From Synergistales bacterium (GTDB taxonomy: Bacteria > Synergistota > Synergistia > Synergistales > JAFGMB01), in contig OY762654.1 of the NCBI GenBank assembly GCA_963666205.1, forward strand, positions 1,120,001 to 1,184,000: 64,000 nt of DNA, written 5' to 3'. Below the pieces are notes generated by a model, which had not been told where the DNA came from, ran no database searches, and saw only the letters and a list, made by a program, of their open reading frames with translations. The position numbers and the translations under genes are program-made. Below, piece after piece: positions 2,662 to 36,610 of the stretch; positions within the stretch are counted from its first letter, which is position 1, and every line of letters starts with the position of its first letter.

Positions 2662-3030
2662 TTACAACACTACCTTTCTGAAATTAGATGAGTCTGAAAA
2701 CCACATTAATATCTCCCGAAGCAATTGTTTCCCCTATCTGCTCCAGATTCCGCCCATGACCAATTTATGGAATTGGTAAATTTTTGAATCTGATCATCAA
2801 TATCAGTCCCCCCAGAAACCTGTTTCTGCCGAAGAGGAACTCTGACTTACTTTATTCGTTATTTGGAAAGAGCCTTCAAAGGGAAACAATCCTGAAGGAA
2901 TTCACCCTCCAGAGAAAGGGAGGATTTTTCATTACAGGGTACAATATACCACATTGAAAATGATGTTACCCCTTTCATTTCTTATGTGAGCAGTAATTAT
3001 TACAGAAACCTTAATCTTTATTCATAACCA

Positions 3031-3069
3031 TATAGCAAGCGGGCGACTGAAAGCCGCCCGCTTGCTATA
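3031..3069. terminator. Intrinsic terminator-like hairpin after USP/TRAP operon
   Basis: tatagcaagcgggcg ... cgcccgcttgctata inverted repeat. Confidence 0.8.
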
Positions 3070-3085
3070 AACAATATATTATCCG

Positions 3086-3535
3086 TCAGTCTTTTGGTCT
3101 GTAAACATGGACTGAGCAGGGAGCATGGCGCACAACTTTTGCAGCCACACTTCCGATAAAGAATCTCTCAATATCACTCAAACCCTTATGACCTATCATT
3201 ATAAGATCATAATTGCCTGCCTCACTTGTCTCTATTATGGTCGAGGAGGGTTCTCCGATCCTGAGGATCAATTCACAGGCAAGTTTATCCAGTGCAAATT
3301 TTTTTCTCCAGGTTTCTATCATGACATGGAACTTCTCCCTGAGCTCATCCTCTTCTGAAGGTTCTATTTCCTTGAAATTTATGTTCCAGCCGGCCCGGGT
3401 AGGGATCCTTCCCTCTACCACATGGATGAAGTCTATCCTTTCCACATCTTCCCGAGAAGCATATGACAGGGCATAAGCTGCAAGATCTTCACTGAAAGGA
3501 CTCTCATCAATTGCCACAAGTATTTTTTCCCCCAT
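3086..3535 (-). CDS. Universal stress protein (UspA family)
   Basis: KILVAIDES N-terminus and DLIMIGHKG...FFIGSVAAKVVRHAPCSV; start moved to ATG 3535 behind a GAAAGGGG RBS. Confidence 0.9.
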   Translation of the reverse strand: MGEKILVAIDESPFSEDLAAYALSYASREDVERIDFIHVVEGRIPTRAGWNINFKEIEPSEEDELREKFHVMIETWRKKFALDKLACELILRIGEPSSTIIETSEAGNYDLIMIGHKGLSDIERFFIGSVAAKVVRHAPCSVHVYRPKD

Positions 3536-3557
3536 CTTTACAAACCCCCTTTCGTAC

Positions 3558-4874
3558 CTAGAACAGAACCCTTCCCAGGAACCAGCTGGGCAATGCAAGT
3601 GATACAGCAGGAACATAAGTGGTTATTATAAGGGTGGGCATCCATGCAAAGATGATCATAAGCATGGTTGGCCTAAGCATTTCCTTTATACTGGCCTTAC
3701 CCAGACGTCCTCCAAGATAAAGAAGGGGTGCCGTCGGGGGCGTAATATTACCCATTCCAAGGTTCACACCGAGAATAGCAGCGAACTGGATTGGGCTTAC
3801 CCCTATCTTGACCATAAGCGGAAGAAGAAGGGGGGTACAGAGAAGGGTCCCGCTGACATCATCCATAAGCATCCCGATCATTACCATGAAGATATTCACC
3901 ATTATAAGGATGATCCTTGGATCTTCAGATACGCTCATGAAAATACCTATTACTTTGTTGGGGAGATTCTCCATAACAAAGAGTCTGCTAAGTATCATTA
4001 CTATAAGGAACATTACCATTAACACACCTGTAGTGGTCCCTGTATCGACAAGGGCTTCCTTGAAAGAAGTGAAGGTAAGACCCTTATATACGAAAAATCC
4101 TACAGGTATGGCATAGAGGACAGATACAGCGGCAGCTTCAGTGGGAGTCATTATTCCAGCGTAAATACCACCAAGAATGATCACCGGCATTAACAGAGCA
4201 GGAATGGCTTTTTTAGTCCTGGTCCAGTTGCTATCAACTATTTCGATCTTCTCTTCCTGCTTCCTTATGTGAGTCTCGTTCATCTCAGGTGATGTCCTGC
4301 ATATGTACCAGTTGACACAACAGAGGAGAAAGGCCAGAAGAAGACCAGGTCCTACTGTCGCAAGGAAACATGTGAGAACGGACTGGTTGGCGCTCCATGC
4401 ATATATGATCTGGATGGAACTTGGCGGAATGAGCAATCCCAGAGGGGATGCATTAACTATGATCGAGGCAGCGTGCCCCTTACTGTAACCGGCCTCTCTC
4501 AGCTTCGGGAACATGATGCTCCCTATACATGAAAGGGTCGCTGCTGCACTGCCCGAGATAGCTCCGAAAAGAGCGGAAGCGATGATGGCAACTGCACCCA
4601 GCCCTCCCCGTATTTTGCCCACAAAAATATTGATAAAGCCGACCAGCGCGTCACCGATGTTACCCCTTTCCATGATCCCTCCAGCAAGTATAAAGAGAGG
4701 AATGGCAAGAAGTACTATGGTGTTGAGCTTACTGTATCCGCTTGAAAGAAGAGCTCCTGACTGATATCCCATGGCCACCACCATGTAGATAAGCGAGGTG
4801 CCGAAAGCAAATACTACGGGTACACCGATAACTATAGTAAAGATCAGCAGAAAGATCGTAATTATCAAGCCCAT
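3558..4874 (-). CDS. dctM: TRAP transporter large permease DctM
   Basis: AIPLFILAG, GAISGS, LIPPS, TPTEAA and ITPP motifs. Confidence 0.95.
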   Translation of the reverse strand: MGLIITIFLLIFTIVIGVPVVFAFGTSLIYMVVAMGYQSGALLSSGYSKLNTIVLLAIPLFILAGGIMERGNIGDALVGFINIFVGKIRGGLGAVAIIASALFGAISGSAAATLSCIGSIMFPKLREAGYSKGHAASIIVNASPLGLLIPPSSIQIIYAWSANQSVLTCFLATVGPGLLLAFLLCCVNWYICRTSPEMNETHIRKQEEKIEIVDSNWTRTKKAIPALLMPVIILGGIYAGIMTPTEAAAVSVLYAIPVGFFVYKGLTFTSFKEALVDTGTTTGVLMVMFLIVMILSRLFVMENLPNKVIGIFMSVSEDPRIILIMVNIFMVMIGMLMDDVSGTLLCTPLLLPLMVKIGVSPIQFAAILGVNLGMGNITPPTAPLLYLGGRLGKASIKEMLRPTMLMIIFAWMPTLIITTYVPAVSLALPSWFLGRVLF

Positions 4875-5444
4875 TTAAGATACCTCCCCCTGTCGGGATG
4901 GCTTCAGGCCATCTCCGTCTTTGCCAGCCTGACTCTTTCCGGGAAAGGCCTCTCGAAATACCTGGTAAAACCTGACCAGGGAATAGATGCTCATTATGGA
5001 AAAACCAAGGAGTATTGAACTCTGGGGGATAACCATGGGGATCCTCCAGGCTATGGATCTGGCATGTTTAACGATACCCCATACAAAATAGTTATAAGCC
5101 CAGTAGTTTATTACAAGGCATACAGTTGTGGAAATGAAGGAAACCAGAAGTTTCATCCTGAGCTTAATCTTTTCGTTCTTTACATATTCGTTCACTATAT
5201 CTGCCTGAATATGGCTGTCTTCGAAGGAACCATAGGCTGCTCCCATCATATAGAGCCAGAATGCGAAGATGAGTATGAATTCCTCAGCTCCGTAAAGGTC
5301 CTTGTGAAGGATGTATCTGAAAAAGACCTGGGCTCCTATTCCAAGGGTGAGCAGAGTCTGGGCCAGTATAACCATGAATGACAGAAATTTCGGAATTATA
5401 ACTTTCAGAAAGAGTTCACCTGAATTACGTTGCTGTTGCGGCAT
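4875..5444 (-). CDS. dctQ: TRAP transporter small permease DctQ
   Basis: QVFFRY...EE and SHIQAD motifs, four TM segments; ATG 5444 with GGAGG RBS. Confidence 0.9.
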   Translation of the reverse strand: MPQQQRNSGELFLKVIIPKFLSFMVILAQTLLTLGIGAQVFFRYILHKDLYGAEEFILIFAFWLYMMGAAYGSFEDSHIQADIVNEYVKNEKIKLRMKLLVSFISTTVCLVINYWAYNYFVWGIVKHARSIAWRIPMVIPQSSILLGFSIMSIYSLVRFYQVFREAFPGKSQAGKDGDGLKPSRQGEVS

Positions 5445-5510
5445 TTTCTTTAGCCTCCATCTCTTTGGAAGTCCTTTTACCTGTTTGTTCGAAAGATGGA
5501 AAAGGAAAGA

Positions 5511-5545
5511 GGAGAGGGTCATCCCCTACTGGGAGGACCCTCTCC
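5511..5545. other. Intra-operon hairpin between dctP and dctQ
   Basis: ggagagggtc ... gaccctctcc inverted repeat. Confidence 0.65.
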
Positions 5546-5562
5546 ATTATCGTGGCAGATAT

Positions 5563-6576
5563 TTACTCGAAATCGGCCATAAGCCCCTTGATCACATCTT
5601 CACCGAACATCTTGGAGAACTTGGGCCAGGAAACCTTTCTCACCTGGGCAGCAAGAGCTTCTATGTCTTCCTGTGAAATATCGTGGATCCTGACACCGTT
5701 TTCTTCAGCAAGTTTTTTCTGATAGTCAGCTTCGGTCTTCTGGGCATTCTCAACGCTCAATTTAGCCTGTTTCTGACAAGCATCAAAAATAACCTTTCTG
5801 TACTCTTCCGGAAGTCTTTCAAAAGCATCAACGTTCATTATGTAGGATACATTTTCAACAAACATCCGAACCGGGTAGAAATCCTTGATCAGATCTCTGA
5901 ACTGGAAGTAGTTCAGAGTAGCAGTTCCGCCTATCCATCCATCACAGACACCAGTCTGCATTGAGGTATAAAGGTCTGACCAGTTTATGGTTACGGTATC
6001 GTAATTGAGGTCCTTCATGGTAACCTTGTAAAGTTCTGCCGGTGGGATCCTGATAAGGATATTATGGTTGGCTTCAACATTGAAGGGCTCTGTGGGTTCT
6101 TTCATTGTGGCAAGAGAAATAAAGCTGTCCACATAGACACCAAGAAGTTTCACATTGACCTCGGCATGAGCTGCCTCATAGGTCTTGTACCAGAAGGAAG
6201 ATGGGGAGAACACCTTGGCGAGGCCTTCCCATGTCGTTGCCAGATAAGGCATGGAAGAGATCTCGAGCATGGGGTTGTACTGACCTGTGATGTAAAAGAA
6301 TCCCATGTCCACATTGCCGCGCATTATATCCTCGTAAACCTGGCTGTAATCCCCCAGCTGTCCTCCGGGATAAACCATGATCTCGACTTCTCCGTTTGTC
6401 GCCTGTTTTACTTCCTCTGCAATATCATACTGGGATTTTGTTCCGGGATGATCCGGAGCATAGTTACCGGCAAAACGGAGCTTATACTTCACCTTTGCAT
6501 CTGCAGCAAGAGCAAAAACCGTTACCATCATTGCCACCAGAAGGAACAACACCATGAATCTTGAATACTTTTTCAT
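5563..6576 (-). CDS. dctP: TRAP transporter substrate-binding protein DctP
   Basis: Signal peptide, YPGGQLG, LIRIP and SDLYTSMQTGVCDG motifs. Confidence 0.95.
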   Translation of the reverse strand: MKKYSRFMVLFLLVAMMVTVFALAADAKVKYKLRFAGNYAPDHPGTKSQYDIAEEVKQATNGEVEIMVYPGGQLGDYSQVYEDIMRGNVDMGFFYITGQYNPMLEISSMPYLATTWEGLAKVFSPSSFWYKTYEAAHAEVNVKLLGVYVDSFISLATMKEPTEPFNVEANHNILIRIPPAELYKVTMKDLNYDTVTINWSDLYTSMQTGVCDGWIGGTATLNYFQFRDLIKDFYPVRMFVENVSYIMNVDAFERLPEEYRKVIFDACQKQAKLSVENAQKTEADYQKKLAEENGVRIHDISQEDIEALAAQVRKVSWPKFSKMFGEDVIKGLMADFE

Positions 6577-6642
6577 TTTGATTTCTCCTCCTCTTATTGA
6601 TCTTCTTATCTTTTTGTTTCTTTTAAAACACTAACACCATCG

Positions 6643-7443
6643 TTAAACAAAACCGTAATAGGGTTTCTGAGCTACTACACTGTGAGCGTATCTGATAAGT
6701 GTAATGAAATCGAATACAGGAAGATCGGTCGCTCTCTGCACATCAGCTGCATATGGAGGCATATCACTGCATTCAAGGAGAATAGCACCTACCTCCGGAT
6801 GGGTTTCCTTTATCCTTAATGCTGTTGAAACCACCTCATCCCGGACCTTCCTGTTGTCGAAGTACCCCCTGTCACTGTGAAGGATGGATTCAAACTCTCC
6901 TCCCCTCGGGATCTCCTCGCAGACACATACATCGGGATCAGCTCCACAGCTTTCCCAGATATCCGGGGTCAGAGAAGGCTTGTCAGCGCAGATAAGGCCT
7001 ACCTTCTGATCTGACCTTATCACTGATTTTATCCAGGGTATCTGGACGAGACTTGAAAGAAAGGTGGGAACATTCAGGGCATCCCTTACCTGGCTCTGAA
7101 AATGCCCGAAGTAACCGCAGGCACCGCATATGGCCCTGCATCCTTCCATTTCCAGCTCTCTAGCTGTAGCGATCAGATCATCAAGGAGTGATGGATCTCC
7201 CCCGTGCATCCTCTCCTGGTTGGAACCAGGCACTACACGATGTCTGACAGGGAAATCATAGGTATATGCATTGACTACATTTCCCGGAATAAGGGGATAC
7301 CATACATTCAGGAGCATGATCCCGACGGGATAACCAGAAATGACCTGGCCCTTTTTGATATAAAAGGTCCGATCCTTATCCTCTTCTCTTCCGATAAAAC
7401 CATAATCTCTGTGATCCCTGAACTCTTCTGTCACTTGCTTCAC
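6643..7443 (-). CDS. Asp/Glu/hydantoin racemase superfamily protein
   Basis: Two-Cys motifs ICGACGYF and LLECSDMPPY; C-terminal LPVFD. Confidence 0.85.
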   Translation of the reverse strand: MKQVTEEFRDHRDYGFIGREEDKDRTFYIKKGQVISGYPVGIMLLNVWYPLIPGNVVNAYTYDFPVRHRVVPGSNQERMHGGDPSLLDDLIATARELEMEGCRAICGACGYFGHFQSQVRDALNVPTFLSSLVQIPWIKSVIRSDQKVGLICADKPSLTPDIWESCGADPDVCVCEEIPRGGEFESILHSDRGYFDNRKVRDEVVSTALRIKETHPEVGAILLECSDMPPYAADVQRATDLPVFDFITLIRYAHSVVAQKPYYGFV

Positions 7444-7537
7444 CTCTCATTCCTGCATGCAGATACTTCTGCAAGTTTATGAAAAAATCCAGCTTCAAGG
7501 GTTGGGGACCGGTGATATCGCGCCAGTCCCCCGATAC

Positions 7538-8761
7538 CTACTTTTTCTCTGTATATACTCCGTTGTGAAGATAATCCAGCATTTCTTCCTTCGTCATATG
7601 GCCTATCCCGATATAATCGAGAGTATAGCCCTTTTCCCAGAAATTCTTCCCTGTCATGGCACATGCAAGATGGATCATGGATTCCACTATGGGGATATCT
7701 ACTCCAAACTTTTTTGCCAATTCATGGTATACATGGCAGCCTACGGGGATATCTTCTGTTATATACCTGTTATTGAGGTCAAAGGGACCTGTACCGTACT
7801 GGATATAATCCTGCTCTTCAAAGGGTATTACATAATCCAGGCCCATATATTCCTGTCCCAGGACATTTTCCCTTGAAAAGAAATGTTCCTTTTCATAGGG
7901 CTGAATACCTACACCCATAGCCTCAGCCAGGGCACATTCCTCTTTATAGAAAGAATACTGAACTTCTGAGACAGCCGGGCAGTATGCATGGGAATAGATG
8001 GAGTAGTCATACTTGTTCTCGCCGTAGATAACTCCCCAGTTCTGCATGACTGCTGCGCCAAGAAGAGTACCCGGGCAATGAAGTACGGGGTTGACGTTAC
8101 TGAAACCAGTATCCATTACAGTGTTGCCGCCAACTGCCCCATCGCCATTGGTAACAGCATCCATGGAGCCCATATATTTTGAGCTCTCAAGAAAAGCTTC
8201 CTGATCGACTGAGGGAAGTGCTGCACCCCTGAGGGTAATAGCCCTGTAATAGACACGGATCTGGGGAAGAATAACTCCGCCCTTGTTCTCCACCCGGCAT
8301 CCGTAAGGTGCACTTGACCAGCCTCCAATGATAACTTTCTTGGTACATCCGGCTTCACGCATCATCTTTCTCAGAAGAAGGGTCCCGTAGTTGTCCGGGA
8401 AAATATGAATTACCATCCCATCCTCAAGAGCAGGGATAAGTTTTTCAAAGAAAGGTCTGTGACCAACGGACGGGGTGGCTACAATAACAATACCTGCACC
8501 TTTAACGGCTTCAGCTATATCAGTAGTCACCATATCCATTTTTGCTAGTCCTTCACGTTCAAAACCGTAAAGGTTAAGCTGCTGGCCAAAGAATTTAATA
8601 CCTTTATCCACGCCGAAAAGGGTCTTTGTGGCAAAAGGTTCAATGTCACATATCCTTACCTTTGCACCTGCCAGAGCACAGTCCGCTGCCTGAGCTTTGG
8701 CAACAGCACCTGCTCCAAGTACTGCTATTGGTTTGTCCTTAAGATATTCCATATTACTCAT
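7538..8761 (-). CDS. NAD/NADP octopine/nopaline (opine) dehydrogenase family protein
   Basis: GAGAVA Rossmann motif, NVNPVLH and RYITEDIPVG. Confidence 0.9.
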   Translation of the reverse strand: MSNMEYLKDKPIAVLGAGAVAKAQAADCALAGAKVRICDIEPFATKTLFGVDKGIKFFGQQLNLYGFEREGLAKMDMVTTDIAEAVKGAGIVIVATPSVGHRPFFEKLIPALEDGMVIHIFPDNYGTLLLRKMMREAGCTKKVIIGGWSSAPYGCRVENKGGVILPQIRVYYRAITLRGAALPSVDQEAFLESSKYMGSMDAVTNGDGAVGGNTVMDTGFSNVNPVLHCPGTLLGAAVMQNWGVIYGENKYDYSIYSHAYCPAVSEVQYSFYKEECALAEAMGVGIQPYEKEHFFSRENVLGQEYMGLDYVIPFEEQDYIQYGTGPFDLNNRYITEDIPVGCHVYHELAKKFGVDIPIVESMIHLACAMTGKNFWEKGYTLDYIGIGHMTKEEMLDYLHNGVYTEKK

Positions 8762-8859
8762 ACCTGATACTGCCTCCTTGTTTGTTCTGTAATAATGCCT
8801 ATATGATCAATATTGACTCCATTGCCGGCTTTCTGAAGTCAACATATTACATCCGTAAT

Positions 8860-9285
8860 CTAGTGGTCCTTTTTTCGGGACAGTATTTCTATGATCCCTC
8901 TATCCCCATCGACCCTGACCAGATCTCCTGTTCTTATAATCTCAAAGGGGTCTTCTTCAAGGTCCGTCACTGCAGGAACTCCTGTAACCACTGCTGCCAC
9001 TCCGGTGCGGGAATCCATCCTGGGAAATATCAGGGCCGCAGGGCCTATGCCCCCTACCCGGGCTGCATGGAAATGACAGGACCATCCGTTGGATCCCTTG
9101 CCTCCCGAGAGGACAAGGACCCCTCCCTTTATGCTCATTCCTTCAAAGGGATGCCCCTTCTCTATGACGATGCCTGTTCTGTCGTCCACTCCGCTCCAGC
9201 CCTGGATGGTCTCCCTGCTCACCATGGCTATGCCCTCCGCTACTCCTCCTATGGCTCCTCTACCGTGAAGTACTATCCTTTCCAT
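8860..9285 (-). CDS. Aconitase X small (swivel) subunit, DUF126
   Basis: GVDDRTGIVIEKGHP, GGKGSNGWS, C-terminal TGDLVRVDG. Confidence 0.9.
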   Translation of the reverse strand: MERIVLHGRGAIGGVAEGIAMVSRETIQGWSGVDDRTGIVIEKGHPFEGMSIKGGVLVLSGGKGSNGWSCHFHAARVGGIGPAALIFPRMDSRTGVAAVVTGVPAVTDLEEDPFEIIRTGDLVRVDGDRGIIEILSRKKDH

Positions 9286-9287
9286 AT

Positions 9288-10556
9288 CTATCTGCCCTCC
9301 CAGTAGCCGCTGACCGCTGACTTAAGACAGTCTTCCATGGATCCGTACCATACCCTGGCTCCGCTTCCCGGTTTTATATAATGGGCCTGTTTACCGGAAT
9401 CGAAGGCCATGGTAACCGCCCCTTCAGGCTTCTTTTCGCTTGTCAGGGGACAGCTGCTGGTCAGTACTATTCCTCCCGCATTTTCTATTGCCTGGGTATA
9501 TCCGCACCGGTCCGACGTTTCCTTTATGGGGGCTGCTGTCCATACATGGAGGATGGTGTCAGGATCTACCTGCCTCCCCTTCAGGAAATCCGCTGCCATC
9601 ATCATCTGTTCTATGGTGTAATGGGGACAGCCCATGCTTATGTAGTCCAGTTTCTCCCGGCCGCCCTCGTTAAGCATTCCCAGGGATTCCTCTATGTCTT
9701 TCTTCGTTATGGTTATGATCTCCTGTGGTTCAGTTCCTCCCAGGGCTTCTTCAAGAGTCTTCGCTTCGGGGGTTATGCCCACGATATGGCACATCTCGGG
9801 TCCTCCCGTGGTAGCCATGGAAGCATATGCTGACTTAAGCTTCGTCACATCGGGCCTCTGGAATCCCTTTCTGAGTACGGGAATGGAATGGGTGGGGGTC
9901 TTGCGCCCTATGGTATATCCGAGAAGGTCCCAGTCATAAACGGTCTCCGTCGGACATTCCACGTCGAAGATATGGGTTCCCTTACGATTGTTCATCAGAT
10001 GGAGTCCCCACAGGGGTGTCCTGCCGCATACAGCGGACCAGAATCCCGCCTCCAGACCATCCGCCTGTCCGCAAGCTCCCCAGAGAGAGTTCATCATCAG
10101 GACAGCGTGAGATTCACTGGTCACGTAGTGTTCTCCCATGAGGGGAATGAATCCAAGAAGATAGGGTACGCATGACCCTACAAGCTGGACTCCTGCATCC
10201 AGATAGCGTTTGAGGTAATTTACGTTATTTTCATGCTCTTTTTCGGATACTCCCATTTCCTTCCAGTTGAAGGGACACATGGGAGCAACATCGGACTGGG
10301 CATAGCATTCGATCTTGTCAAGAACCACTTTCTCAGAAGAACAGAAGTGCATCTCAGACATGACTTCATCTATATCATCGGAGTCCAGGGCATTCATATA
10401 GGGATGGGATCCGCAGAAAAGGTGAGCCTTGGTCACTACGCAGAGTTCATCCGCTCCAAGGACATGGGCATAACTGACCACATTCTCCATGGCCTTCTGT
10501 TTCAACAGGCCTTCAGAACCATCCAGCATTCGCTTTTCTCTATCAGTCAGGTTCAC
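9288..10556 (-). CDS. Aconitase X large (catalytic) subunit, DUF521
   Basis: LTDREKRMLDG start, SCVPY, SESHA, GRTPLWGLH, HIVGITPEA, GCPH, DSGK. Confidence 0.9.
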   Translation of the reverse strand: MNLTDREKRMLDGSEGLLKQKAMENVVSYAHVLGADELCVVTKAHLFCGSHPYMNALDSDDIDEVMSEMHFCSSEKVVLDKIECYAQSDVAPMCPFNWKEMGVSEKEHENNVNYLKRYLDAGVQLVGSCVPYLLGFIPLMGEHYVTSESHAVLMMNSLWGACGQADGLEAGFWSAVCGRTPLWGLHLMNNRKGTHIFDVECPTETVYDWDLLGYTIGRKTPTHSIPVLRKGFQRPDVTKLKSAYASMATTGGPEMCHIVGITPEAKTLEEALGGTEPQEIITITKKDIEESLGMLNEGGREKLDYISMGCPHYTIEQMMMAADFLKGRQVDPDTILHVWTAAPIKETSDRCGYTQAIENAGGIVLTSSCPLTSEKKPEGAVTMAFDSGKQAHYIKPGSGARVWYGSMEDCLKSAVSGYWEGR

Positions 10557-10648
10557 TTACCGTACCCTCCTTTAGTATTGGCTCCAGCTATCAAAAAAAG
10601 CCAACAGCAAATGTTTCATTTCGAAATACAGTTTTTATTCTGATTTAT

Positions 10649-11524
10649 TTAAAGCAGATCTGCCAATTCGATTTTTTCGAGGATATAGGCTCCATGCTCC
10701 TCAAGAAAATGATCATATTCTTTAAGCTTTGCCCGGGATTTGTTCTTATCCTTAAGGAATACCCCGATCAATAAAGAATGGATCAGCGCCATTACTGCCC
10801 CGTAAGGATCAATAAAGGACATGAATTTCTGCGGAACGAGAAATAGTATCGATGAAAATGCTGCTATTGGTGAAAGAACGGAATCGGTGATACCTATGAC
10901 CTTGATGTTTTTTTCTTTAAGGTAACTCATTACTTCCTGAGTCTGCTGAGGATATCTAGGGAAACTGAAGACCAGCGCCACCGAATTGGGAGAAAGTGCC
11001 TGGAGAGAATTGAAAGTCTCAGGATCAAAAGAAAGAATCCTTGTTACATTTTCCTTAAAAACATTGAGATAAATGCTGGCATATTCTGCAACGACCCTGT
11101 TGAACTGTGTACCTACAATAATGACATCTTCAGCGTTAAAGATGGAATCTACAGTATCGTTGAAAGAATCTTCACTGATACCTTCAAGCATCTCCTCCAT
11201 AATCGTCTTTTCAAGGGAAATGACTTTGCTGAAAAGGGAATGGCTGTTTTCAAGAGGATATTTCTCCATAGAATGTATTTCCTGGTATAAAAGTTCCTGG
11301 ATGGCAGACTGAAGCTCGGAATAGCCCGGATAACCAAGGGAATAGGCCAGACGGGTGACCGTAGCTTCACTGACACCGGCATTCATTGCCAGAGTAGTGG
11401 AAGATACAAAGGCAATATCTTTAGAATTCTCCGCAATATATTTAGCCAGGGTCCTCTGCTTGGGACTCAATGTAGGAGCGACTTCCCGTATTCTCTCTAA
11501 AACAGATACTTTCTTGTATCCCAT
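10649..11524 (-). CDS. RpiR/MurR family transcriptional regulator
   Basis: HTH VSEATVTRLAYSLGYPGY plus SIS domain (SFPRY, IGITDSVLSP); ATG 11524 behind GAAGGAG. Confidence 0.93.
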   Translation of the reverse strand: MGYKKVSVLERIREVAPTLSPKQRTLAKYIAENSKDIAFVSSTTLAMNAGVSEATVTRLAYSLGYPGYSELQSAIQELLYQEIHSMEKYPLENSHSLFSKVISLEKTIMEEMLEGISEDSFNDTVDSIFNAEDVIIVGTQFNRVVAEYASIYLNVFKENVTRILSFDPETFNSLQALSPNSVALVFSFPRYPQQTQEVMSYLKEKNIKVIGITDSVLSPIAAFSSILFLVPQKFMSFIDPYGAVMALIHSLLIGVFLKDKNKSRAKLKEYDHFLEEHGAYILEKIELADLL

Positions 11525-11553
11525 CTGAAAAATCTCCTTCATCCTAGATTTTT

Positions 11554-11601
11554 GATGAAGAACTTTCTACAAAGAGTAGATGACCTTCATCTTTTTGTCA
11601 A
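11554..11601 (-). promoter_or_regulatory. Sigma70-type promoter of rpiR with overlapping imperfect palindrome
   Basis: TTGACA (11601-11596)-17 bp-TACTCT (11578-11573); inverted repeat gatgaag..tctac-aaaga-gtaga..cttcatc at 11554-11591. Confidence 0.6.
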
Positions 11602-11660
11602 GTCTGTATACTTCATACCTGAAACCCTTTTGCCTCAATCTGCCTCCTCACAATTTAACA

Positions 11661-11694
11661 AGAATGAGGCAGGACTCAAGTCCTGCCTCATTCT
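11661..11694. terminator. Terminator-like hairpin
   Basis: agaatgaggcaggact-ca-agtcctgcctcattct. Confidence 0.75.
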
Positions 11695-11720
11695 GTAACC
11701 AAATGTTTTTCACGATCTTT

Positions 11721-12521
11721 TTATTTGACTAATCTGTCACCAAGCCGGACAAAAGTGAATCCCCTTTCTATCAATAAGGGTACTGCATCAATTATTCCTT
11801 CTGCCGTATCTCCTTCGGGATGGTTCATATGACATAGTATGATATCTCCAGCCTGGGAACTGAGAAGAGCTTCCTTAACCTTCTCCCGGCTGAAAGTCGC
11901 TCCGGCATCTCCAAGAACTGAATATCCGGCAATGATGTAACCAAGATCCACGGCTATCTGGACGGCAACTTCGTCATAGTATGCTGTACCGGAACGGAAA
12001 AAGGAAGGCTTGATCCCTGTAAGATCCTGTATCTTTAACCCGTTCAGCTCTATCTCGCCGACCAGCTCGGCTATGTCGGCAGTCCCTGCTATGCCATAGA
12101 CGGACCTGCCGTTAACCGAACATGGTTTATGAAGTAATCCGTGGTTGCCTATCTCAAAAAGGGGATCACTCGCTAGGTCCATAAACAGGTCGGGATTGGC
12201 ATCTATCCATCTTGCATTTATAAAAAGGGTGGCCGGTATATTCTCCTGCCTCAGGAACCTGACAAGCTCTTTGTCGCAACCACTCCCCCGCTTCGAGCCA
12301 CAGGCATCCAGGGTGAGGGCTATCTCTTTACTATCTGTTTCAAAACGGGATACTATGCCGTCCAGCTCCTCTCCCCACTGGGCTGGAACGCATTTCCCGT
12401 ACCTGACTTCCATTTCCGTTATCATGGATCCCAGGTCAGCTGCTGCAGAAAAAGGTGTTGAACATAGCATATAGAATAAGGTAATCGAAATGACGGTAAA
12501 TATATTTTTCAAGTAAACCAT
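11721..12521 (-). CDS. Secreted polysaccharide deacetylase family protein (CE4/NodB fold)
   Basis: Signal peptide; IALTLDAC, ATLF, IGNHGLLH, FFRSG and IILCHM motifs. Confidence 0.85.
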   Translation of the reverse strand: MVYLKNIFTVISITLFYMLCSTPFSAAADLGSMITEMEVRYGKCVPAQWGEELDGIVSRFETDSKEIALTLDACGSKRGSGCDKELVRFLRQENIPATLFINARWIDANPDLFMDLASDPLFEIGNHGLLHKPCSVNGRSVYGIAGTADIAELVGEIELNGLKIQDLTGIKPSFFRSGTAYYDEVAVQIAVDLGYIIAGYSVLGDAGATFSREKVKEALLSSQAGDIILCHMNHPEGDTAEGIIDAVPLLIERGFTFVRLGDRLVK

Positions 12522-12541
12522 CCTTTACCTGGAATTTGTTA

Positions 12542-13915
12542 TCAGATAAACAGACGCAGAACGCTCCTCCATAGAACAGATATCCTGCCATAAGGGGGAT
12601 AAAGGAACCTGTTGTCAAAGGAAAAGGGTTTCCTTAATACGCTTTTGAAATGCGAGAAAGAATCAAAGCTGGCCTTGCCATGGTATGAACCCATACCCGA
12701 ATCTCCAACTCCCCCAAAGGGTAAACCTCCGGGAGCAAGGTGGATCAGAGTATGATTAACACAGACCCCTCCGGAAGAAGTATGTCTCAGGATCTTTTCT
12801 TTTACGTACTCGTAACCGGAAAATACGTAAAGGGCAAGGGGTTTGGGTCTATCATTTATCTGTTTTATAACCTCATCCAGGGTTTCAAATCCCAGGACCG
12901 GAAGGATGGGGCCAAATATCTCTTCCTCCATAATTTTCGAATCCCAGGTTACATTGTCGATTATTGTGGGTGCAATATACAGTTCTTCCTTTATGTACTC
13001 CCCGCCGGCAACGATATCCCCCTTTATCAGGGAAACAAGCCTTCTGAAGTGCTTTTCGCTTATGATCCTGCTGTAATCAATGGAAAGCCTGGGTTCCTTT
13101 CCGTAAAAATCTTCCAGCTGTTTTTTCATCATTTTTATAAACTCGGCCTTTATGCTCTCATGAACAAGCACATAGTCAGGAGCGACACATGTCTGGCCTG
13201 CATTCATGAATTTTCCCCAGACTATCCTCCTGGCGGATATTTCCAGATCTGCTGAAGCATCCACAATACATGGGCTTTTTCCCCCAAGTTCAAGGATAAC
13301 AGGGGTCAGGTGTCTGGCGGCAGATCTCATAACTATCCTGCCAACTCTTGTACTTCCAGTATAAAAGATAAGATCGAATTTCTGCTCCAGAATAGAACTC
13401 ATATCCTTTGAGGATATCCGCAGAAGGGAAACGTGCTCTGGCGGAAACACTTCTCCGATAATCTCCTCCAGCAGGATGGCCGTATTCTGCGAAAGGCTGG
13501 AGGGCTTTATGAATGCACAGTTTCCGGCTGCTATTGCCCCGACAAGCGGCGATATTACAAGCTGGAAGGGGTAATTCCAGGGGGAAACTATAAGTACAAC
13601 TCCAAGGGGTTCAGGATATATCTTTGCAGATGCCGGAAGATATACGGGGGGCACATTGACCCTTCTGGGCTTAGCCCACCTTTCAAGGTTCCGGAGGGTA
13701 TGATCTATTTCATTGAGGCAAAAGGCTACCTCACTGGAAAAAGCTTCCATGGTTCCCTTGCCAAGATCCATGGAGAGAGCTTCATAAATCTCATTCTCCC
13801 GGCTGAGAATGACTTCTTTCAATTTCTTTAAGCGGGATTTACGTAAGGAGACAGATCCAGTCTCTCCAGAATTGAAATATGCCCTCTGCATCTCCAGGAT
13901 ATTGGCGATATCCAT
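12542..13915 (-). CDS. Aldehyde dehydrogenase (ALDH3-like)
   Basis: PWNYP, YTGS, LELGGKSP, GQTCVAPD, EEIFGP, PFGGVGDSG. Confidence 0.95.
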   Translation of the reverse strand: MDIANILEMQRAYFNSGETGSVSLRKSRLKKLKEVILSRENEIYEALSMDLGKGTMEAFSSEVAFCLNEIDHTLRNLERWAKPRRVNVPPVYLPASAKIYPEPLGVVLIVSPWNYPFQLVISPLVGAIAAGNCAFIKPSSLSQNTAILLEEIIGEVFPPEHVSLLRISSKDMSSILEQKFDLIFYTGSTRVGRIVMRSAARHLTPVILELGGKSPCIVDASADLEISARRIVWGKFMNAGQTCVAPDYVLVHESIKAEFIKMMKKQLEDFYGKEPRLSIDYSRIISEKHFRRLVSLIKGDIVAGGEYIKEELYIAPTIIDNVTWDSKIMEEEIFGPILPVLGFETLDEVIKQINDRPKPLALYVFSGYEYVKEKILRHTSSGGVCVNHTLIHLAPGGLPFGGVGDSGMGSYHGKASFDSFSHFKSVLRKPFSFDNRFLYPPYGRISVLWRSVLRLFI

Positions 13916-14033
13916 GAATTCTCCCTCCAGAATTATCAAGATATACCAGTCTTTTCATCACACTAAGACGGTACATACATTGTACATCATAACCTGTGTT
14001 GGTTCTCCATAAAATCTCTACTATTTCTTTGCT

Positions 14034-14978
14034 TTAAAAAAGAAAGCCCTGGGTACCAATATAATGCCGGCCTTCCAATCTCTGACTGCCTGGGGGTGGA
14101 AGAAGAAATTCTCCGTCGGGATCATGGGAACGAAAATTCTTCAGTGCAGTCACCCCGCTCTTCACTGCATAGCAGTAAAGACAGCCATGGATACATGTTT
14201 CATATTCTCCCACATCCCTTGCAGCATAACAGCCGCAGGAAGAACCTGGCCGATGAGATCTTTCCGGAGGAAGTGGAAGAATTTTTCCAGCAACATCAGA
14301 CAGACGAAAAGGATCTATACAGCAGGCATCTGCCACTCCCTCTGAGAGAAGATCCCTCTGCCCGCACAGAGAAAGGGACATACCACAGGAACGGGCAATA
14401 TCAGCCAGACGGGAAGCAAAGGATATTTTCATGGCGTCAGGAGGATCATAAAACCTTATCCCTTCTTCACCTGAGAGTCTGTTCATCTTCTCAATGGTTT
14501 TCCTGTAAAAACTGGTGAAAGATACTATAACTTCCGATGTAAGTCCTTCAAGGGAACGGGAAATTCGGGAAAAGTTTCTGATATGAAAATCTTCATCCGA
14601 AAGAGAAGAAAAGAGTATGGGGTCGTAGCGCCATACAACTGAATGAGGGCCATATTTTCGTGATATCTTCTCAAAAACAACCACACTATCCTCCCAGCGG
14701 GGAACGTGTTTATCCAGGATTTCAGGATAGCCGGTGATGGTAAATTGCAGATAAAAGGGATAACCCATGTTTCTAACAGAATCAAAACCCTCAAGAAAAG
14801 ACAGGGGGTTCCTTGTCCAGAATACGATACCTTCAACCCTCTCTTTTGACAGGTTGATCAGGGAAACCCTCCGGTTATACGGATTAACCCTTTTACAGTA
14901 GCCCTCCCGAAGCCTGTTAAGAAACCATTTTCCGTAAAAGGCAGGTATATCAGTCCGATAGCTGGCAGAAATGATCAA
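14034..14978 (-). CDS. DUF1848 family protein
   Basis: MIISASYRTDIPAFY start, WRYDPI, C-terminal CIHGCLYCYA. Confidence 0.9.
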   Translation of the reverse strand: MIISASYRTDIPAFYGKWFLNRLREGYCKRVNPYNRRVSLINLSKERVEGIVFWTRNPLSFLEGFDSVRNMGYPFYLQFTITGYPEILDKHVPRWEDSVVVFEKISRKYGPHSVVWRYDPILFSSLSDEDFHIRNFSRISRSLEGLTSEVIVSFTSFYRKTIEKMNRLSGEEGIRFYDPPDAMKISFASRLADIARSCGMSLSLCGQRDLLSEGVADACCIDPFRLSDVAGKILPLPPERSHRPGSSCGCYAARDVGEYETCIHGCLYCYAVKSGVTALKNFRSHDPDGEFLLPPPGSQRLEGRHYIGTQGFLF

Positions 14979-29373: not shown

Positions 29374-30555
29374 CTACTGGAAAGAGGGGATTTCCTTTTT
29401 CCCGGAAGAGATGACAGGTTTCCAGAAATATATGTACACCAGGGGAGAGATCAGAAACACAGCCCCTGCAACAATCTGAAATGCCCTCGTGTAATCGAGA
29501 AGTGCTGACAGGTAGCCTATGATCAGAGGGCAGATAAAGAAGGACAAAGCCATGAGGAACCACACCATGGATGTCACCTTCGGTCTCAATCTCGGAGGCG
29601 CAACATCACCAGCAAGAGCAAGGTGCATGGGGAAACCATAACCCATACCAAGCCCGAAAAGAATTCCGCATATCATGAACAGCAAGTTATTCCAGGCAAA
29701 GGTAGAAAGGAAAAGTCCTGCTGAAGTCAGGGCAAACATGGGAGCTGCAAGCTTCATCCGGGGAAACCTGTCAAGGTGCCTGAAGAGGAAAAGCCTTATG
29801 AAAACAGAAAGGGCAGCATTCGCCGAGATGAAAAATGAAGGGACCAGACCTTTTTCCATAGCCAACCCAGCCACGGAGAGGATACATGCGTCTGTGAATG
29901 AAAAAAAGATTATTGAGACGAAAAGCGCCCGTACTGAAGGAAGTCGGAAAAGATCTGAATAAGTGCCCCAATCCTGTTTTTGTCTCTTTTCATATCCAAC
30001 CTCCTCTATTTTAAAAGACATAACCAGAATAAGTGAAAGAAAGGATACCAAAGGTCCAAGCCATATGTAAAAAAGAGGATGTCCATGATGTAAAAGCCAG
30101 TCCGCCAGGGGAACCGCTGTGACTAAAGGAGCGATACATCCGGCGGACACAAGGGCAAAGGAGGACCCCCTTATCTCATCCGGCACTGAAATAACCTGGT
30201 AGGTTGTAAGGCTTACAAGAAAAAGGCTAGAGGAAACTCCTGTAAGGATCCTCCAGAAAAGGATCTGGGTAATTGAAGAACCCGCCAGGGCAACTCCTGC
30301 ACTGCTGACAAGGTTTACCGATGCGGCTATAACAAGGGTCAGGTAAAATCCGTACTTCTCCACCAGCCTCACTACGAGAGGTCTTGAAAAAGTTGAGGCA
30401 GCATAATAAGAACCAAGAACCCAGCCAATTACACCAGGATCAACAATACCATAGGTGTTGAGATAAGGAGCAAGAAGATAATAGACGTTGCTCAGGCTCA
30501 TCAGGGCAAAATTGGCAGCAAAAAATTTAAATATAAGAAATCTGTAGTTTTTCAT
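29374..30555 (-). CDS. MFS transporter
   Basis: About 12 TM segments; RLVEKYG and PDEIRGSSF motifs. Confidence 0.9.
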   Translation of the reverse strand: MKNYRFLIFKFFAANFALMSLSNVYYLLAPYLNTYGIVDPGVIGWVLGSYYAASTFSRPLVVRLVEKYGFYLTLVIAASVNLVSSAGVALAGSSITQILFWRILTGVSSSLFLVSLTTYQVISVPDEIRGSSFALVSAGCIAPLVTAVPLADWLLHHGHPLFYIWLGPLVSFLSLILVMSFKIEEVGYEKRQKQDWGTYSDLFRLPSVRALFVSIIFFSFTDACILSVAGLAMEKGLVPSFFISANAALSVFIRLFLFRHLDRFPRMKLAAPMFALTSAGLFLSTFAWNNLLFMICGILFGLGMGYGFPMHLALAGDVAPPRLRPKVTSMVWFLMALSFFICPLIIGYLSALLDYTRAFQIVAGAVFLISPLVYIYFWKPVISSGKKEIPSFQ

Positions 30556-30719
30556 TGAAAACCTTTAACTATTTTAATTTTCATTCCACATAGATAACAT
30601 TCTTGACCATTTGCTTGTAAATGAAATTACAAAGCACAAGATATAAAATATACAAAGTCAAGAAGAAACTAATCCACTATATATTCTTTATTTTGTCATG
30701 ACCAGGTTTTAATAGTTTT

Positions 30720-31916
30720 TTAAAGTACTTTTTCTTCATGATCCTTAAAAAAATCTATTACGGTCTGCGCAAAAACCGCTGGACCTATCCAAAGAACATC
30801 TTCATTGATATCAAATTTTGGATGATGATGTGGATATTGTGTATCCCTATCTGATCTAAAAGACCCCAGGCTGAAAAAGGTCCCTTTGGTTTCCAGGAGA
30901 TAATAAGCCATATCTTCTGCACCCATGCCCGGTCTTTTAATCTCGACAATATTCCTTTTACCCACGATTTTTGCCGCTGATTTCGCAAAGAAGCGAGTGA
31001 AGTCTTCATCGTTTAATACCGCAGGATAAAATTTTCCGTATGTTATTTCTGCCTCTGCCCTGTTTGCTTGAGCAATTGAGGCACATATCTCCCTGAACCT
31101 TTTTTCTATGAATAGCCTGTCGTCCTGATCTAATGTTCGGATAGTTCCTTTAAATTCCACTGTTTCGGGTATAACGTTAGTGGTGGTACCTCCCTGAATC
31201 ATACAAATGCTTAAAACCGCTTCATGGGTGGGATCGATCTCCCTGCTGACTATGCGTTGAAGAGAAGTTATCATTTCTGAGGAAGTTATGATAGGGTCTA
31301 TACACTGATGCGGTCTTGCTCCATGACCTCCATGGCCTCTCACCTTAACGCTGAATGAGTCTACAGCTGCCATCATTGACCCATAACGAATGCCGATCTG
31401 TCCATCCCCAACTTCTTTGAACAGTTGGCCTATATGCAATCCAATTACCGCATCGACGTGAGGGCCTTTCATACACCCCTCATCGATCATGATTTTAGCG
31501 CCCCCGGTAGTTTCTTCTGCAGGCTGAAAGATCATTTTTACAGTCCCCTTAAGGAGATCCTTATTCTCTGCAAGAATTTTTGCGGTGCCCAAAAGCATTG
31601 CCGTATGGGCATCATGTCCACAGGCATGCATATTGCCATTTACGGATGCATAATCAAGACCAGTCTCTTCTTTTATCGGAAGGCCATCCATATCTGCTCT
31701 AAGAGCAATTGTAGGACCAGTCTCATCACCACTGATCAAGGCCAATACCCCGGTCCTGGCCATAGTTTCATAGCTGATACCCATTTCGTTCAACCTGTCT
31801 TTGACAAATTGAGAAGTCTGAAAAAGATCAAATCCTATTTCTGGTATCTGGTGTAATCGGCGTCTCCATTCAATAATATCCGAATGGATATCCTTAGCAG
31901 ATTGCTTCGCATTCAT
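30720..31916 (-). CDS. M20D family amidohydrolase
   Basis: RRRLHQIPE, RADMDGLP, MHACGHDAH, FQPAEE, AEDM, HHPKF. Confidence 0.95.
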   Translation of the reverse strand: MNAKQSAKDIHSDIIEWRRRLHQIPEIGFDLFQTSQFVKDRLNEMGISYETMARTGVLALISGDETGPTIALRADMDGLPIKEETGLDYASVNGNMHACGHDAHTAMLLGTAKILAENKDLLKGTVKMIFQPAEETTGGAKIMIDEGCMKGPHVDAVIGLHIGQLFKEVGDGQIGIRYGSMMAAVDSFSVKVRGHGGHGARPHQCIDPIITSSEMITSLQRIVSREIDPTHEAVLSICMIQGGTTTNVIPETVEFKGTIRTLDQDDRLFIEKRFREICASIAQANRAEAEITYGKFYPAVLNDEDFTRFFAKSAAKIVGKRNIVEIKRPGMGAEDMAYYLLETKGTFFSLGSFRSDRDTQYPHHHPKFDINEDVLWIGPAVFAQTVIDFFKDHEEKVL

Positions 31917-32024
31917 AGCCTCATCCTCCGATCGTTTATTTGATCACAATTTGGATGGATAGTAAAAACAGAACGATACTACCCCACTGGCCGATATAAT
32001 CTTAAATCTGCATAATGACGGATA

Positions 32025-33116: not shown

Positions 33117-33160
33117 GAAAGAATCCCCCTCTCACATAGATAGGTATTTTTCACTTACAG

Positions 33161-33459
33161 CAGTTTCTTCTGCGGAGGATCAAAGATCAATTTTACGACT
33201 ACCACAGGAAAAACGTGATTCTCTTTAAGAATATGGTTGGAACACAGAAATATTGCCATATGGGTATCATTCTCAAAGACGTCCATTTTTCGGTCATTGA
33301 ATGCATCTTATCCTGGATGGCGTCTTCTTGTATTTAAAAGCCGTTCAGCCCCACCATTCGGTGATCAAAACCATCACTGCAGTTCAACTTTTGATGTAAT
33401 CGGCATCTCAATTCCATAATATTCGAATGGAGATCATTTGCGGATTACTTAACATTCAA
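33161..33459 (-). pseudogene. Decayed 5' fragment of an M20 amidohydrolase (copy of 31916 gene)
   Basis: Aligns by eye with 31508-31916; reads LNVK*SANDLHSNIMELRCRLHQ versus MNAKQSAKDIHSDIIEWRRRLHQ; has a stop, indels and internal deletions. Confidence 0.85.
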
Positions 33460-33679
33460 AGTCTCCTCCTTAGATCATTTCTTTGATCACGTTTAGATCT
33501 TTATTTAGGACGGACAAAGTTCTCTCACTGACCGAATGGTTGTATAAAGCAAGGTAGATCGGCGAATATTAATCGCCAAATTTTATCAACTTCATATTCC
33601 CAATAAATTAAAGTAAGAAAAGTGGATTAGATCAGGATTGTCTAACTTATGTTAATACTGTGCTGTCTTACCAACCTTA

Positions 33680-33720: not shown

Positions 33721-33748
33721 GAGTTCGTACAACCCTTTCAGCTATCCT

Positions 33749-36599: not shown

Positions 36600-36610
36600 A
36601 TACCCCCTTT

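Follow-up and report, generated by a model that had tools for sequence, protein, structure and literature searches.

The window analysed here, a 64,000-nucleotide stretch of a Synergistales bacterium (C1:1120001-1184000 of a 2.95-Mb single-contig genome), carries at 3086-11601 nine minus-strand genes in one direction. They combine the two subunits of an aconitase X (AcnX) with an octopine/opine-dehydrogenase-family enzyme (henceforth ODH), a racemase-fold protein (Rac), a TRAP importer, a universal stress protein (USP) and an RpiR regulator. In a tentative reading of the sequence, plausible but short of even probability, the genes would form an RpiR-controlled catabolic operon for uptake, C2 epimerisation, dehydration by AcnX to an imine and NAD(P)H-dependent reduction of a beta-hydroxy imino or amino acid. 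The evidence that carries this reading is a natural exchange in which different reductase families, ODH and OCD, stand around nearly the same AcnX genes. The operon is real and its enzymes come from unstudied branches; as a block it is a mosaic and not a conserved pathway unit.

The nine co-oriented genes of the original prediction were all confirmed at their places by open reading frames, and every named family was borne out by Pfam and NCBIfam profiles. The features of the unit are as follows.

10649..11542, minus strand: RpiR/MurR-family regulator (HTH_6 52.8 bits, SIS 45 bits)
9288..10556, minus strand: AcnX large subunit, AcnXL (PF04412 376.5 bits, gathering score 31.5)
8860..9285, minus strand: AcnX small (swivel) subunit (PF01989 83.7 bits, gathering score 27)
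7538..8761, minus strand: octopine/opine-dehydrogenase-family NAD(P) oxidoreductase, ODH (PF02317 104.6 bits, cut-off 30)
6643..7443, minus strand: Asp/Glu/hydantoin-racemase-fold two-Cys protein, Rac (NCBIfam PRK07475 "hypothetical protein", 287 bits, cut-off 231)
5563..6576, minus strand: TRAP solute-binding protein DctP (PF03480 140.6 bits)
4875..5522, minus strand: TRAP small membrane subunit DctQ (PF04290 72.2 bits)
3558..4874, minus strand: TRAP large membrane subunit DctM (PF06808 276.2 bits; TIGR00786 335 bits, cut-off 268)
3086..3616, minus strand: universal stress protein USP (PF00582 90 bits)
3034..3066, minus strand: downstream hairpin, perfect 12-bp GC-rich stem with a 9-nt loop, 20 nt past the USP stop codon
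11663..11692, minus strand: upstream hairpin, 13-bp stem with a 4-nt loop, after the upstream polysaccharide-deacetylase-family gene

Both Pfam AcnX domains thus score above their gathering thresholds on adjoining large- and small-subunit genes, and the TRAP importer is complete, with DctP, DctQ and DctM each above its own family cut-off.

Exchange of cassettes around the aconitase X genes

Locus codes (L001, L003 and so on) denote related loci or loci of the same genome, and A1 denotes the AcnX clade of the window. The closest public AcnXL is 96% identical and lies in a metagenome-assembled genome titled Acetomicrobium hydrogeniformans; Aminobacterium proteins are 83% identical, and both matches place the genome in Synergistota. 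In L001, the closest relative, the large- and small-subunit genes (acnXLS) were found at the same chromosomal site, with 93% DNA identity and 96% protein identity for AcnXL. Comparison of the window with L001 by blastn gave three matching segments.

1-2679: 89% identity, amino-acid permease side
8884-10574: 93% identity, exactly acnXS, acnXL and the ribosome-binding site
11714-14352: 90% identity, PDA, ALDH and DUF1848

No L001 counterpart was returned by blastn for window positions 2680-8883 (USP, DctMQP, Rac and ODH) or 10575-11713 (RpiR), and the window rpiR had no counterpart there at more than 69% DNA identity. Upstream of acnXLS, L001 carries RpiR'-OCD-DctP'Q'M'-SDH-alpha-RidA, and downstream a fused serine-dehydratase-like gene. 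RidA is an imine deaminase, and the OCD/mu-crystallin family reduces imino acids. An RpiR regulator and a TRAP importer thus occur in both cassettes around acnXLS, each time together with an enzyme from a family of imino-acid reductases, which is ODH in one and OCD in the other. Because ODH and OCD are swapped around the same AcnX, the AcnX product would be an imine that is subsequently reduced, and this is the main argument for the proposed pathway. The swap around near-identical AcnX genes is a clean natural case of non-orthologous replacement and can guide function prediction.

The aconitase X subunits differ from both characterised types

Residues of AcnX were mapped by alignment, the large subunit on 7cnp, 7cnq and 7d2r together with 7cnr and the small subunit on 7cnr_B, 2hi6 and 7cnp, with residue roles taken from PMC8184944 (partial text). 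Class membership rests on this mapping and on NCBIfam cut-offs, the tree described below holding relatives and not characterised AcnX sequences. To our knowledge, only two activities are known for aconitase X. The window AcnXL is nearly equidistant from the solved enzymes, at ~150 bits to AtAcnX and 148 bits to the archaeal TkAcnX. The catalytic frame is kept: small-subunit S65 and large-subunit E148, S149, K389 and Y393 correspond to AtAcnX Ser70, Glu292, Ser293, Lys530 and Tyr534, which bind the carboxylate and 3-OH and abstract H-2, Ser70 being the base (PMC8184944, partial text).

The predicted cluster ligands are of a different kind from those of AtAcnX. Three cysteines, C129, C310 and C369, align with TkAcnX cluster ligands Cys110(L), Cys283(L) and Cys342(L) and are invariant in 20 AcnXL relatives. 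The AtAcnX [2Fe-2S] ligand set (Cys273, Cys508, Cys510) is not kept: C129 and C369 align, C310 sits at AtAcnX Ser449, and since Cys510 has no equivalent the ligands are read as the archaeal three-Cys set. Changes were also observed around the substrate. The residues that bind the ring nitrogen of cis-3-hydroxy-L-proline (C3LHyp) are lost, with AtAcnX Asp203 replaced by F47 (a less certain position, given a 2-residue insertion around F47) and Thr72 by small-subunit G67; AtAcnX Ile206 is P52 in the window. Of the four ring- and nitrogen-binding residues Asp203, Thr72, Trp35 and Ile206, only Trp35, which packs on the pyrrolidine ring (PMC8184944, partial text), is retained, as small-subunit W30. 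The equivalog model for C3LHyp dehydratase, NF051439, has a cut-off of 700 bits that was not reached by the large subunit (195.7) or the small subunit (46.1).

On the side of mevalonate-5-phosphate, G49, H51, P52 and N55 align in the region of the phosphate loop and Asn residues of TkAcnX (Gly48, Val49, Ser50, Asn53 and Asn79); N55 falls outside the conserved columns of the window AcnX clade, and the placement of Asn79 differs between two pairwise alignments. No mevalonate-pathway neighbours were found in the window or in 32 closely inspected related loci, a search that did not cover the whole genome; the neighbours there are transporters and amino-acid-type enzymes. C3LHyp-binding sites are fully conserved in Type-IIa AcnX; in the uncharacterised Types IIc-IIf, to which Watanabe et al. 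assigned no function, the landmark residues for either known activity are missing (PMC8184944, partial text). By its residues and scores the window AcnX appears to lie outside both characterised types, as originally predicted, and fits the description of Types IIc-IIf. The locus places one unassigned bacterial AcnX clade in a concrete context, next to an importer, a presumed epimerase and a presumed imine reductase.

Signature positions were compared across 75 related loci. Group A, which includes the window, shows H45, F47, H51, Q87, D89 and H150 together with small-subunit W30 and KGSNGWS, and group B shows T45, C89 and S150. A quick IQ-TREE analysis, the only tree reported for AcnX, split off group B (45 rows) by a branch with 99% SH-aLRT and joined the window with L001 (100), then with L002 and an Adiutricaceae/Deltaproteobacteria set (96). 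Within group A, three loci (A2: L016, L021 and L028) differ in the small-subunit signature. Clade A1 comprises 25 loci, 24 assigned by signature and L014 by score and context only. At L018:8499-9530, an MttB-family gene beside acnXLS was found in two fragments (96 and 121 aa) and could be a pseudogene or a gene read through an in-frame stop.

The putative reductase and its racemase-fold partner

ODH belongs to a divergent orthologue group with 56-86% identity that is spread through anaerobes. Its dinucleotide-binding motif VLGAGAVAK was located at residues 14-22, and H228, R332 and D337 align with His202, Arg292 and Asp297 of CENDH (1bg6; 85 bits), which we take to be the catalytic residues of that enzyme. 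Since this His/Arg/Asp set is aligned and is invariant in 7 orthologues, ODH is probably an active dehydrogenase.

Rac reaches only 27.5 bits with the Pfam family Asp_Glu_race (PF01177; cut-off 31), and a PDB sequence search returned no match at E <= 0.1. A predicted model (pLDDT 85) was matched by Foldseek with probability 1.0, TM 0.55-0.60 and 13-20% identity to arylmalonate decarboxylase and to hydantoin, glutamate, allantoin and aspartate racemases, with 3ixm, 2eq5, 5hj7 and 3s81 among the matches. An Atlas look-up returned only "aspartate/glutamate racemase family" clusters. The two cysteines earlier ascribed to this protein, C109 and C225, proved invariant in 15 aligned family members. 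Rac is a separate family within the Asp/Glu/hydantoin racemase superfamily and is predicted to be a C2 epimerase.

Gene-neighbourhood conservation

Neighbours were counted at 80 AcnX-centred and 80 ODH-centred loci, many of which are incomplete, so that all counts are lower bounds; for A1, neighbours within 10 kb were taken. The ODH-centred set consists of 80 metagenome loci of 508 confirmed matches, with ODH 55-86% identical. In A1, Rac was present in at least 14 of the 25 loci, directly adjoining AcnXLS in most of those, and an ODH orthologue (>= 400 bits) in at least 4; OCD or ODH is carried by 10 of the 25. Further neighbours in A1 and those of the ODH-centred loci were as follows.

A1, of 25 loci: DctM 10, DctP 9, RpiR 9
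A1, of 25 loci: OCD family 7, a 431-aa SDH-alpha-only protein 7, amino-acid permease 7
A1, of 25 loci: RidA 6, fused serine-dehydratase-like 5, proline-racemase family 4
ODH-centred, of 80 loci: Rac 16, PrpD-like 13, BCCT 12, proline-racemase family 10, OCD 7, TAXI 7

Of the 80 AcnX-centred loci, 3 (L003, L010 and L011), each from Bacillota, hold AcnX, an ODH orthologue and Rac in one cluster. All three components point the same way in L010 and L011; a reverse-strand gene splits ODH from AcnX in L003. In three Synergistota loci (L019, L097 and L098) the same three components lie in neighbouring divergent operons, the AcnX-bearing one reading RpiR'-DctP'Q'M'-RidA-SDH-alpha-OCD-AcnXLS. The second AcnX subclade also pairs AcnX with ODH orthologues, together with a PrpD-like protein and TAXI-TRAP (L016, L028, L163 and L171). 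The combination of aconitase X, opine dehydrogenase and racemase therefore recurs loosely from the AcnX side, and its presence as a conserved nine-gene unit, which the original prediction implied, did not hold. Because the nine-gene unit is not a conserved block, its parts appear to belong to a recombined toolbox.

Other associations were noted around ODH orthologues. In L010, L101, L114, L115 and L122 a PanB-like gene of the ketopantoate-hydroxymethyltransferase family and one for a corrinoid (B12-binding) protein come after the ODH orthologue; near these runs lie a pterin-binding methyltransferase in L115 and an MttB-family gene in L010, L114, L115 and L122. At L164:11246-13702 and L175:15075-17459 a glycyl-radical enzyme directly adjoins the ODH orthologue. 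These enzymes were considered as HypD and rejected, scoring 598-609 bits against a cut-off of 1100 and lying nearer CutC (715-716 against 1050); since they miss the HypD cut-off, the glycyl-radical link of ODH orthologues to hydroxyproline was dropped.

Proposed pathway and substrate

The reaction steps, their order and the substrate are inferred from what was observed, namely family membership, catalytic residues, context statistics and the cassette swap. DctPQM would import a beta-hydroxy alpha-imino or alpha-amino acid, with USP possibly modulating the transporter. Rac would then invert C2 so that H-2 and OH-3 stand anti. AcnX, with a cubane Fe-S cluster on C129, C310 and C369 and with S65 as base, would eliminate water through the free iron, E148 and K389 to give an enamine that tautomerises to the 2-imino acid. 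Finally, ODH would use NAD(P)H to reduce the C=N bond, yielding the deoxy amino acid. In sum, the beta-hydroxyl would be removed reductively, a reaction that would give a fermenter an electron sink as well. The sequence of epimerisation, dehydration and processing of a C=N bond, put forward before these comparisons were made, fits the comparative data in that OCD replaces ODH in sister loci and RidA is common; its parts proved only loosely linked.

The substrate class, the weakest part of the proposal, is most likely a stereoisomer of 3-hydroxyproline or a close cyclic, possibly N-alkylated, analogue. With 3-hydroxyproline the route would run via delta-1-pyrroline-2-carboxylate to proline. In L003 and L005-L007 a proline-racemase-family gene adjoins Rac-AcnXLS. 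Its best NCBIfam match is trans-3-hydroxy-L-proline (T3LHyp) dehydratase at 347-382 bits, below the cut-off of 550, and its scores with 4lb0 and 4k7g (named "3-hydroxyproline dehydratase") are 344 and 299 bits, respectively. Of its two catalytic positions, the first is occupied by Ser and the second by Cys. The usual hydroxyproline partner genes had been described as absent, which is true of the window, but relatives carry T3LHyp-dehydratase-like and OCD genes beside the same AcnX clade. On account of these genes the pathway looks closer to known hydroxyproline chemistry, of which it is probably a variant. BhcB and BhcD of the beta-hydroxyaspartate cycle follow the same logic of a dehydratase followed by an imine reductase. 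A three-step logic of racemase, dehydratase and OCD-type reductase has been proposed for EutABC, whose operon includes TRAP and usp genes (PMC5924519, partial text).

Carnitine, suggested by MttB-family and BCCT neighbours, was considered as a substrate for the Rac clusters and rejected, on the reasoning that a two-Cys racemase acts on the alpha-carbon and the stereocentre of carnitine is C3.

A broader proposal is more doubtful. The window AcnX clade would represent a third functional type, a dehydratase with a [4Fe-4S] cluster whose substrate is not C3LHyp but another beta-hydroxy imino or amino acid, for example D-configured or N-alkylated 3-hydroxyproline. The ODH group would be a hitherto unrecognised family of catabolic imino-acid reductases of anaerobes, interchangeable with OCD, and together with the PRK07475 epimerase these enzymes would form a cassette-swappable toolbox with which amino-acid fermenters make proline-type electron acceptors from hydroxylated imino acids and from demethylated betaines. 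If the proposed pathway holds, a third AcnX function would be assigned, a widespread anaerobe-specific opine-dehydrogenase branch (represented by the 508 metagenome matches) would receive its first catabolic role, and the "hypothetical" PRK07475 family would obtain a name. A further route feeding collagen- or plant-derived hydroxy-imino acids into fermentation would be added in digesters, sediments and guts.

Alternative explanations

Several results weigh against the proposed pathway and its substrate. The shortfall with NF051439 and the loss of Asp203, Thr72 and Ile206, described above, are among them, and cis-3-hydroxyprolines are rare in nature, PMC8184944 mentioning only telomycin. Acyclic beta-hydroxy amino acids would suit the RidA and serine-dehydratase-like neighbours no less well. 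MttB-family genes in 6 and BCCT carriers in 4 of the 25 A1 loci point to betaines, which 3-hydroxyproline leaves unexplained. Among group B loci (L030-L080) these two families occur in 26 and 15 of 52, respectively, which suggests an unstudied role of group B AcnX in quaternary-amine metabolism. The ODH-centred loci have MttB-family genes in 30, DctM in 21 and sigma-54 activators in 17 of 80, and AcnXL in only 4 of 80. L001 has no ODH or Rac at its acnXLS site, so Rac would be optional. In L019, L097 and L098, RpiR-ODH-Rac-DctPQM forms an operon of its own, with ODH 86% identical in protein sequence to that of the window; since the ODH-Rac-TRAP genes stand apart there, they may have been fused with AcnX in the window only recently, and their steps need not follow one another. 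The same observations favour an explanation in which two independent modules, AcnXLS and RpiR-ODH-Rac-DctPQM(-USP), were joined by recombination and are co-transcribed without acting in sequence: the second module is kept without AcnX in those three loci, with AcnX in the divergent neighbour, the L001 comparison puts recombination breakpoints at the acnXLS edges (8884 and 10574), and AcnXL is scarce at ODH-centred loci. We regard this explanation as rather unlikely. AcnX, Rac and ODH are clustered in the three loci of another phylum, Bacillota, the AcnX-ODH pairing recurs in the second AcnX subclade, the two operons still lie side by side in L019, L097 and L098, and the analogous reductase family OCD replaces ODH in L001.

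Opine-type catabolism, in which an imported N-(carboxyalkyl) or N-alkyl amino acid would be set to one diastereomer by Rac and split oxidatively by ODH into an amino acid and a 2-oxo acid, with AcnX (de)hydrating a hydroxylated side chain or product, agrees with the reversible oxidation of N-(1-carboxyalkyl) amines typical of the ODH family and with its retained catalytic triad. Six of the seven ODH-family genes of the genome, all but that of the operon, adjoin importers, three of them with an M20 amidohydrolase as well, and two saccharopine-dehydrogenase-like genes with a Rac paralogue lie 30 kb away. PrpD-like proteins, a family that presumably includes iminodisuccinate epimerase, are often beside ODH orthologues (13 of 80), and OCD neighbours score 147-162 bits to the SbnB family, which we take to be an opine-type oxidative hydrolase. 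This explanation is nevertheless unlikely: it leaves AcnX without a clear role and does not account for the proline-racemase-family and HypD links, an amidase or lyase to process the products is missing from the operon, and we know of no natural hydroxylated opine. An ordinary C3LHyp dehydratase would account for the shared Pfam families, the catalytic frame, the retained Trp35 and the T3LHyp-dehydratase-like and OCD genes of related loci. It is very improbable given the NF051439 score of 195.7 against 700 bits, the changes at Asp203, Thr72, Ile206 and Cys510, the archaeal three-Cys ligand set, and the contrast between the fully conserved binding sites of Type-IIa and the missing landmark residues of Types IIc-IIf (PMC8184944, partial text). 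Dehydroxylation of 5-hydroxyectoine or a similar cyclic compatible solute to the parent solute by an EutABC-like route would share its logic and its TRAP/usp pairing with uehABC-usp-eutABCDE (PMC5924519, partial text); compatible-solute-type carriers (BCCT and OpuAC) occur in related loci, and the matching RNA-library contigs come from a marine sediment study. We consider it improbable in the extreme, as Rac matches only PRK07475 and not the EutA model among NCBIfam profiles at E <= 0.001, OCD neighbours score 91-98 bits to the EutC model TIGR02992 (cut-off 472), TeaA (2vpn) matches DctP weakly at 43 bits, and the proline-racemase-family neighbours are not explained.

Comparison with known systems

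The proposed pathway has partial counterparts in several described systems. With the Type-IIa C3LHyp dehydratase AtAcnX it shares PF04412 and PF01989, the Ser, Glu-Ser, Lys, Tyr frame and Trp35, as well as the order of a dehydratase followed by an imine reductase and the T3LHyp-dehydratase-like and OCD genes in loci related to the window. It differs in the three-Cys (cubane-type) ligands in place of the [2Fe-2S] set, in the lost Asp203, Thr72, Ile206 and Cys510, in a reductase of the opine-dehydrogenase family rather than OCD or Ldh_2, and in the additional two-Cys protein of racemase fold; the unit belongs to an amino-acid-fermenting anaerobe, is supplied by a TRAP importer and is regulated by RpiR. 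TkAcnX, the Type-IIb mevalonate-5-phosphate dehydratase of Thermococcus kodakarensis (7cnr/7cns), likewise has two separate subunits, the three cluster cysteines and the Ser/Glu/Ser/Lys/Tyr frame, and enzymes of this archaeal type carry [4Fe-4S] (PMC10040528, partial text). In contrast to TkAcnX, the window protein has Trp at the position of Leu27(S), His51 for Val49 and Pro52 for Ser50 in the phosphate loop, and it belongs to a bacterial catabolic operon with an importer and lacks mevalonate-pathway neighbours.

Conversion of 5-hydroxyectoine to ectoine by EutABC, encoded in uehABC-usp-eutABCDE of Ruegeria pomeroyi, has been proposed and not biochemically evaluated (PMC5924519, partial text). 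Both systems comprise a racemase-fold protein, a dehydratase and an NAD(P)H reductase, with a TRAP importer and usp in the operon. The EutABC dehydratase is a homologue of the pyridoxal-phosphate threonine dehydratase and its reductase is of the OCD family, unlike AcnX and ODH, and its regulator is EnuR/GntR-MocR, unlike RpiR; Rac is not a member of the EutA model, and a Pfam scan of the window operon found no pyridoxal-phosphate dehydratase or OCD gene. CENDH (1bg6) and octopine dehydrogenase (3c7a) share with ODH the PF02317 domain, the Rossmann motif and the aligned His/Arg/Asp, at only 85 and 45 bits, respectively. The window ODH is ~45 residues longer than CENDH, and its group stands beside catabolic importers and MttB-family methyltransferases, not opine synthesis. 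In a literature search outside which most subscription journals fell, no paper was found that joins AcnX with an opine-dehydrogenase-family enzyme or with PRK07475, in agreement with the original prediction, which was unaware of any such pathway.

Transporter and host genome

The ligand of DctP was sought among solved homologues and no inference was possible, as the best solved relative scored 67 bits and sialic-acid, ectoine and sugar-acid binders scored alike. The closest DctP paralogue in the genome (209 bits) heads a hydroxyproline run at C1:1529937-1540052 (L180 and L181), in which DctPQM, a fused serine-dehydratase-like gene, OCD, GntR, a glycyl-radical activase and HypD are co-oriented. 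The HypD protein (trans-4-hydroxy-L-proline dehydratase) scores 1207 bits against an equivalog cut-off of 1100. Because the serine-dehydratase-like and OCD genes both sit in the HypD run, these families, which accompany AcnX in relatives, appear tied to hydroxyproline use in this organism. As a separate observation, the pair in L180/L181 may provide a partner route, so far undescribed, for a further isomer of hydroxyproline.

The genome holds one AcnX, seven ODH-family genes, three Rac paralogues, nine RpiR, nine OCD genes, 20 DctP and 11 TAXI binding proteins. No MttB-family, BCCT or sigma-54-activator genes were returned by a phmmer screen of the genome. The operon ODH is the most divergent of the seven copies; two of the six others, in addition to the importers and amidohydrolases mentioned above, have OCD genes nearby. 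An expansion of ODH and OCD was seen at L090-L094, with a string of OCD, RpiR, TAXI binding protein, fused TRAP permease, ODH, OCD and OCD in L094. A Gly_reductase search of the genome gave two 445-aa frames, judged by length alone to be of the glycine-reductase type rather than proline reductase PrdA. A sodium-dependent carrier was found at C1:2941717-2948407 (L179) together with a proline-racemase/4-hydroxyproline-epimerase-like gene, whose 379 bits to proline racemase fall short of the cut-off, and with sarcosine-oxidase-like subunits in pieces; the set presumably resembles heteromeric D-hydroxyproline or opine dehydrogenases.

Operon boundaries and expression

Intergenic spacings from rpiR to dctM are, in order, 92, -4, 98, 94, 66, 40 and 0 nt, the small-subunit start overlapping the large-subunit stop by 4 nt. 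With its first ATG as start, the USP frame runs into the end of dctM; since the USP domain begins only at residue 30, the actual start is probably downstream of 3616. The hairpin at 3034-3066 is the probable end of the transcript, and that at 11663-11692 is read as the upstream boundary of the unit. A consensus terminator scan listed neither, the first having a 9-nt loop and both having weak T tracts, and all terminator-like sites that it listed lie inside coding regions. The earlier statement that the unit ends at a terminator is consequently kept as a reading of the sequence, backed by the 12-bp stem after USP and not by a tool call. A promoter consensus scan was uninformative, with 14 promoter-like sites against 15.4 expected, and an Rfam scan of the region for leaders or riboswitches returned no family at E <= 0.1. 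Possible operator sites in the rpiR-acnXL gap (10557-10648) are the 8-bp palindrome TTTCGAAA and the 6-bp inverted repeat TTGGCT...AGCCAA, which precede the ribosome-binding site.

RNA-library contigs from one environmental study of marine sediment matched 7 of the 9 operon genes in part at >=99% identity, covering parts of dctM, dctQ, dctP, acnXL and rpiR and the ODH-Rac junction at 7309-7801; stretches of the operon without contigs carry no meaning. The contigs show presence in RNA libraries and are weak evidence of expression, and a single transcript is not proved by them. For acnXL, sampled at window positions 9001-10000, the G+C content is 0.54 with an AT skew of -0.23, against 0.42-0.48 in the neighbouring kilobases; this part alone is conserved in the exchange of cassettes with L001.

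A second cluster in the window

A second cluster of "secondary-amine" genes was observed at 29374-39585 of the window.

29374-30555: MFS carrier
30720-31916: M20 amidohydrolase
32025-33116: another ODH-family gene
35370-36599 and 37462-38793: two saccharopine-dehydrogenase-like genes
36675-37427: GntR regulator
38875-39585: Rac paralogue

Between these genes, at 33749-35097, a DcuC-type carrier appears as two adjoining open reading frames (profile positions 63-241 and 281-460) and may be a frameshifted or split gene.

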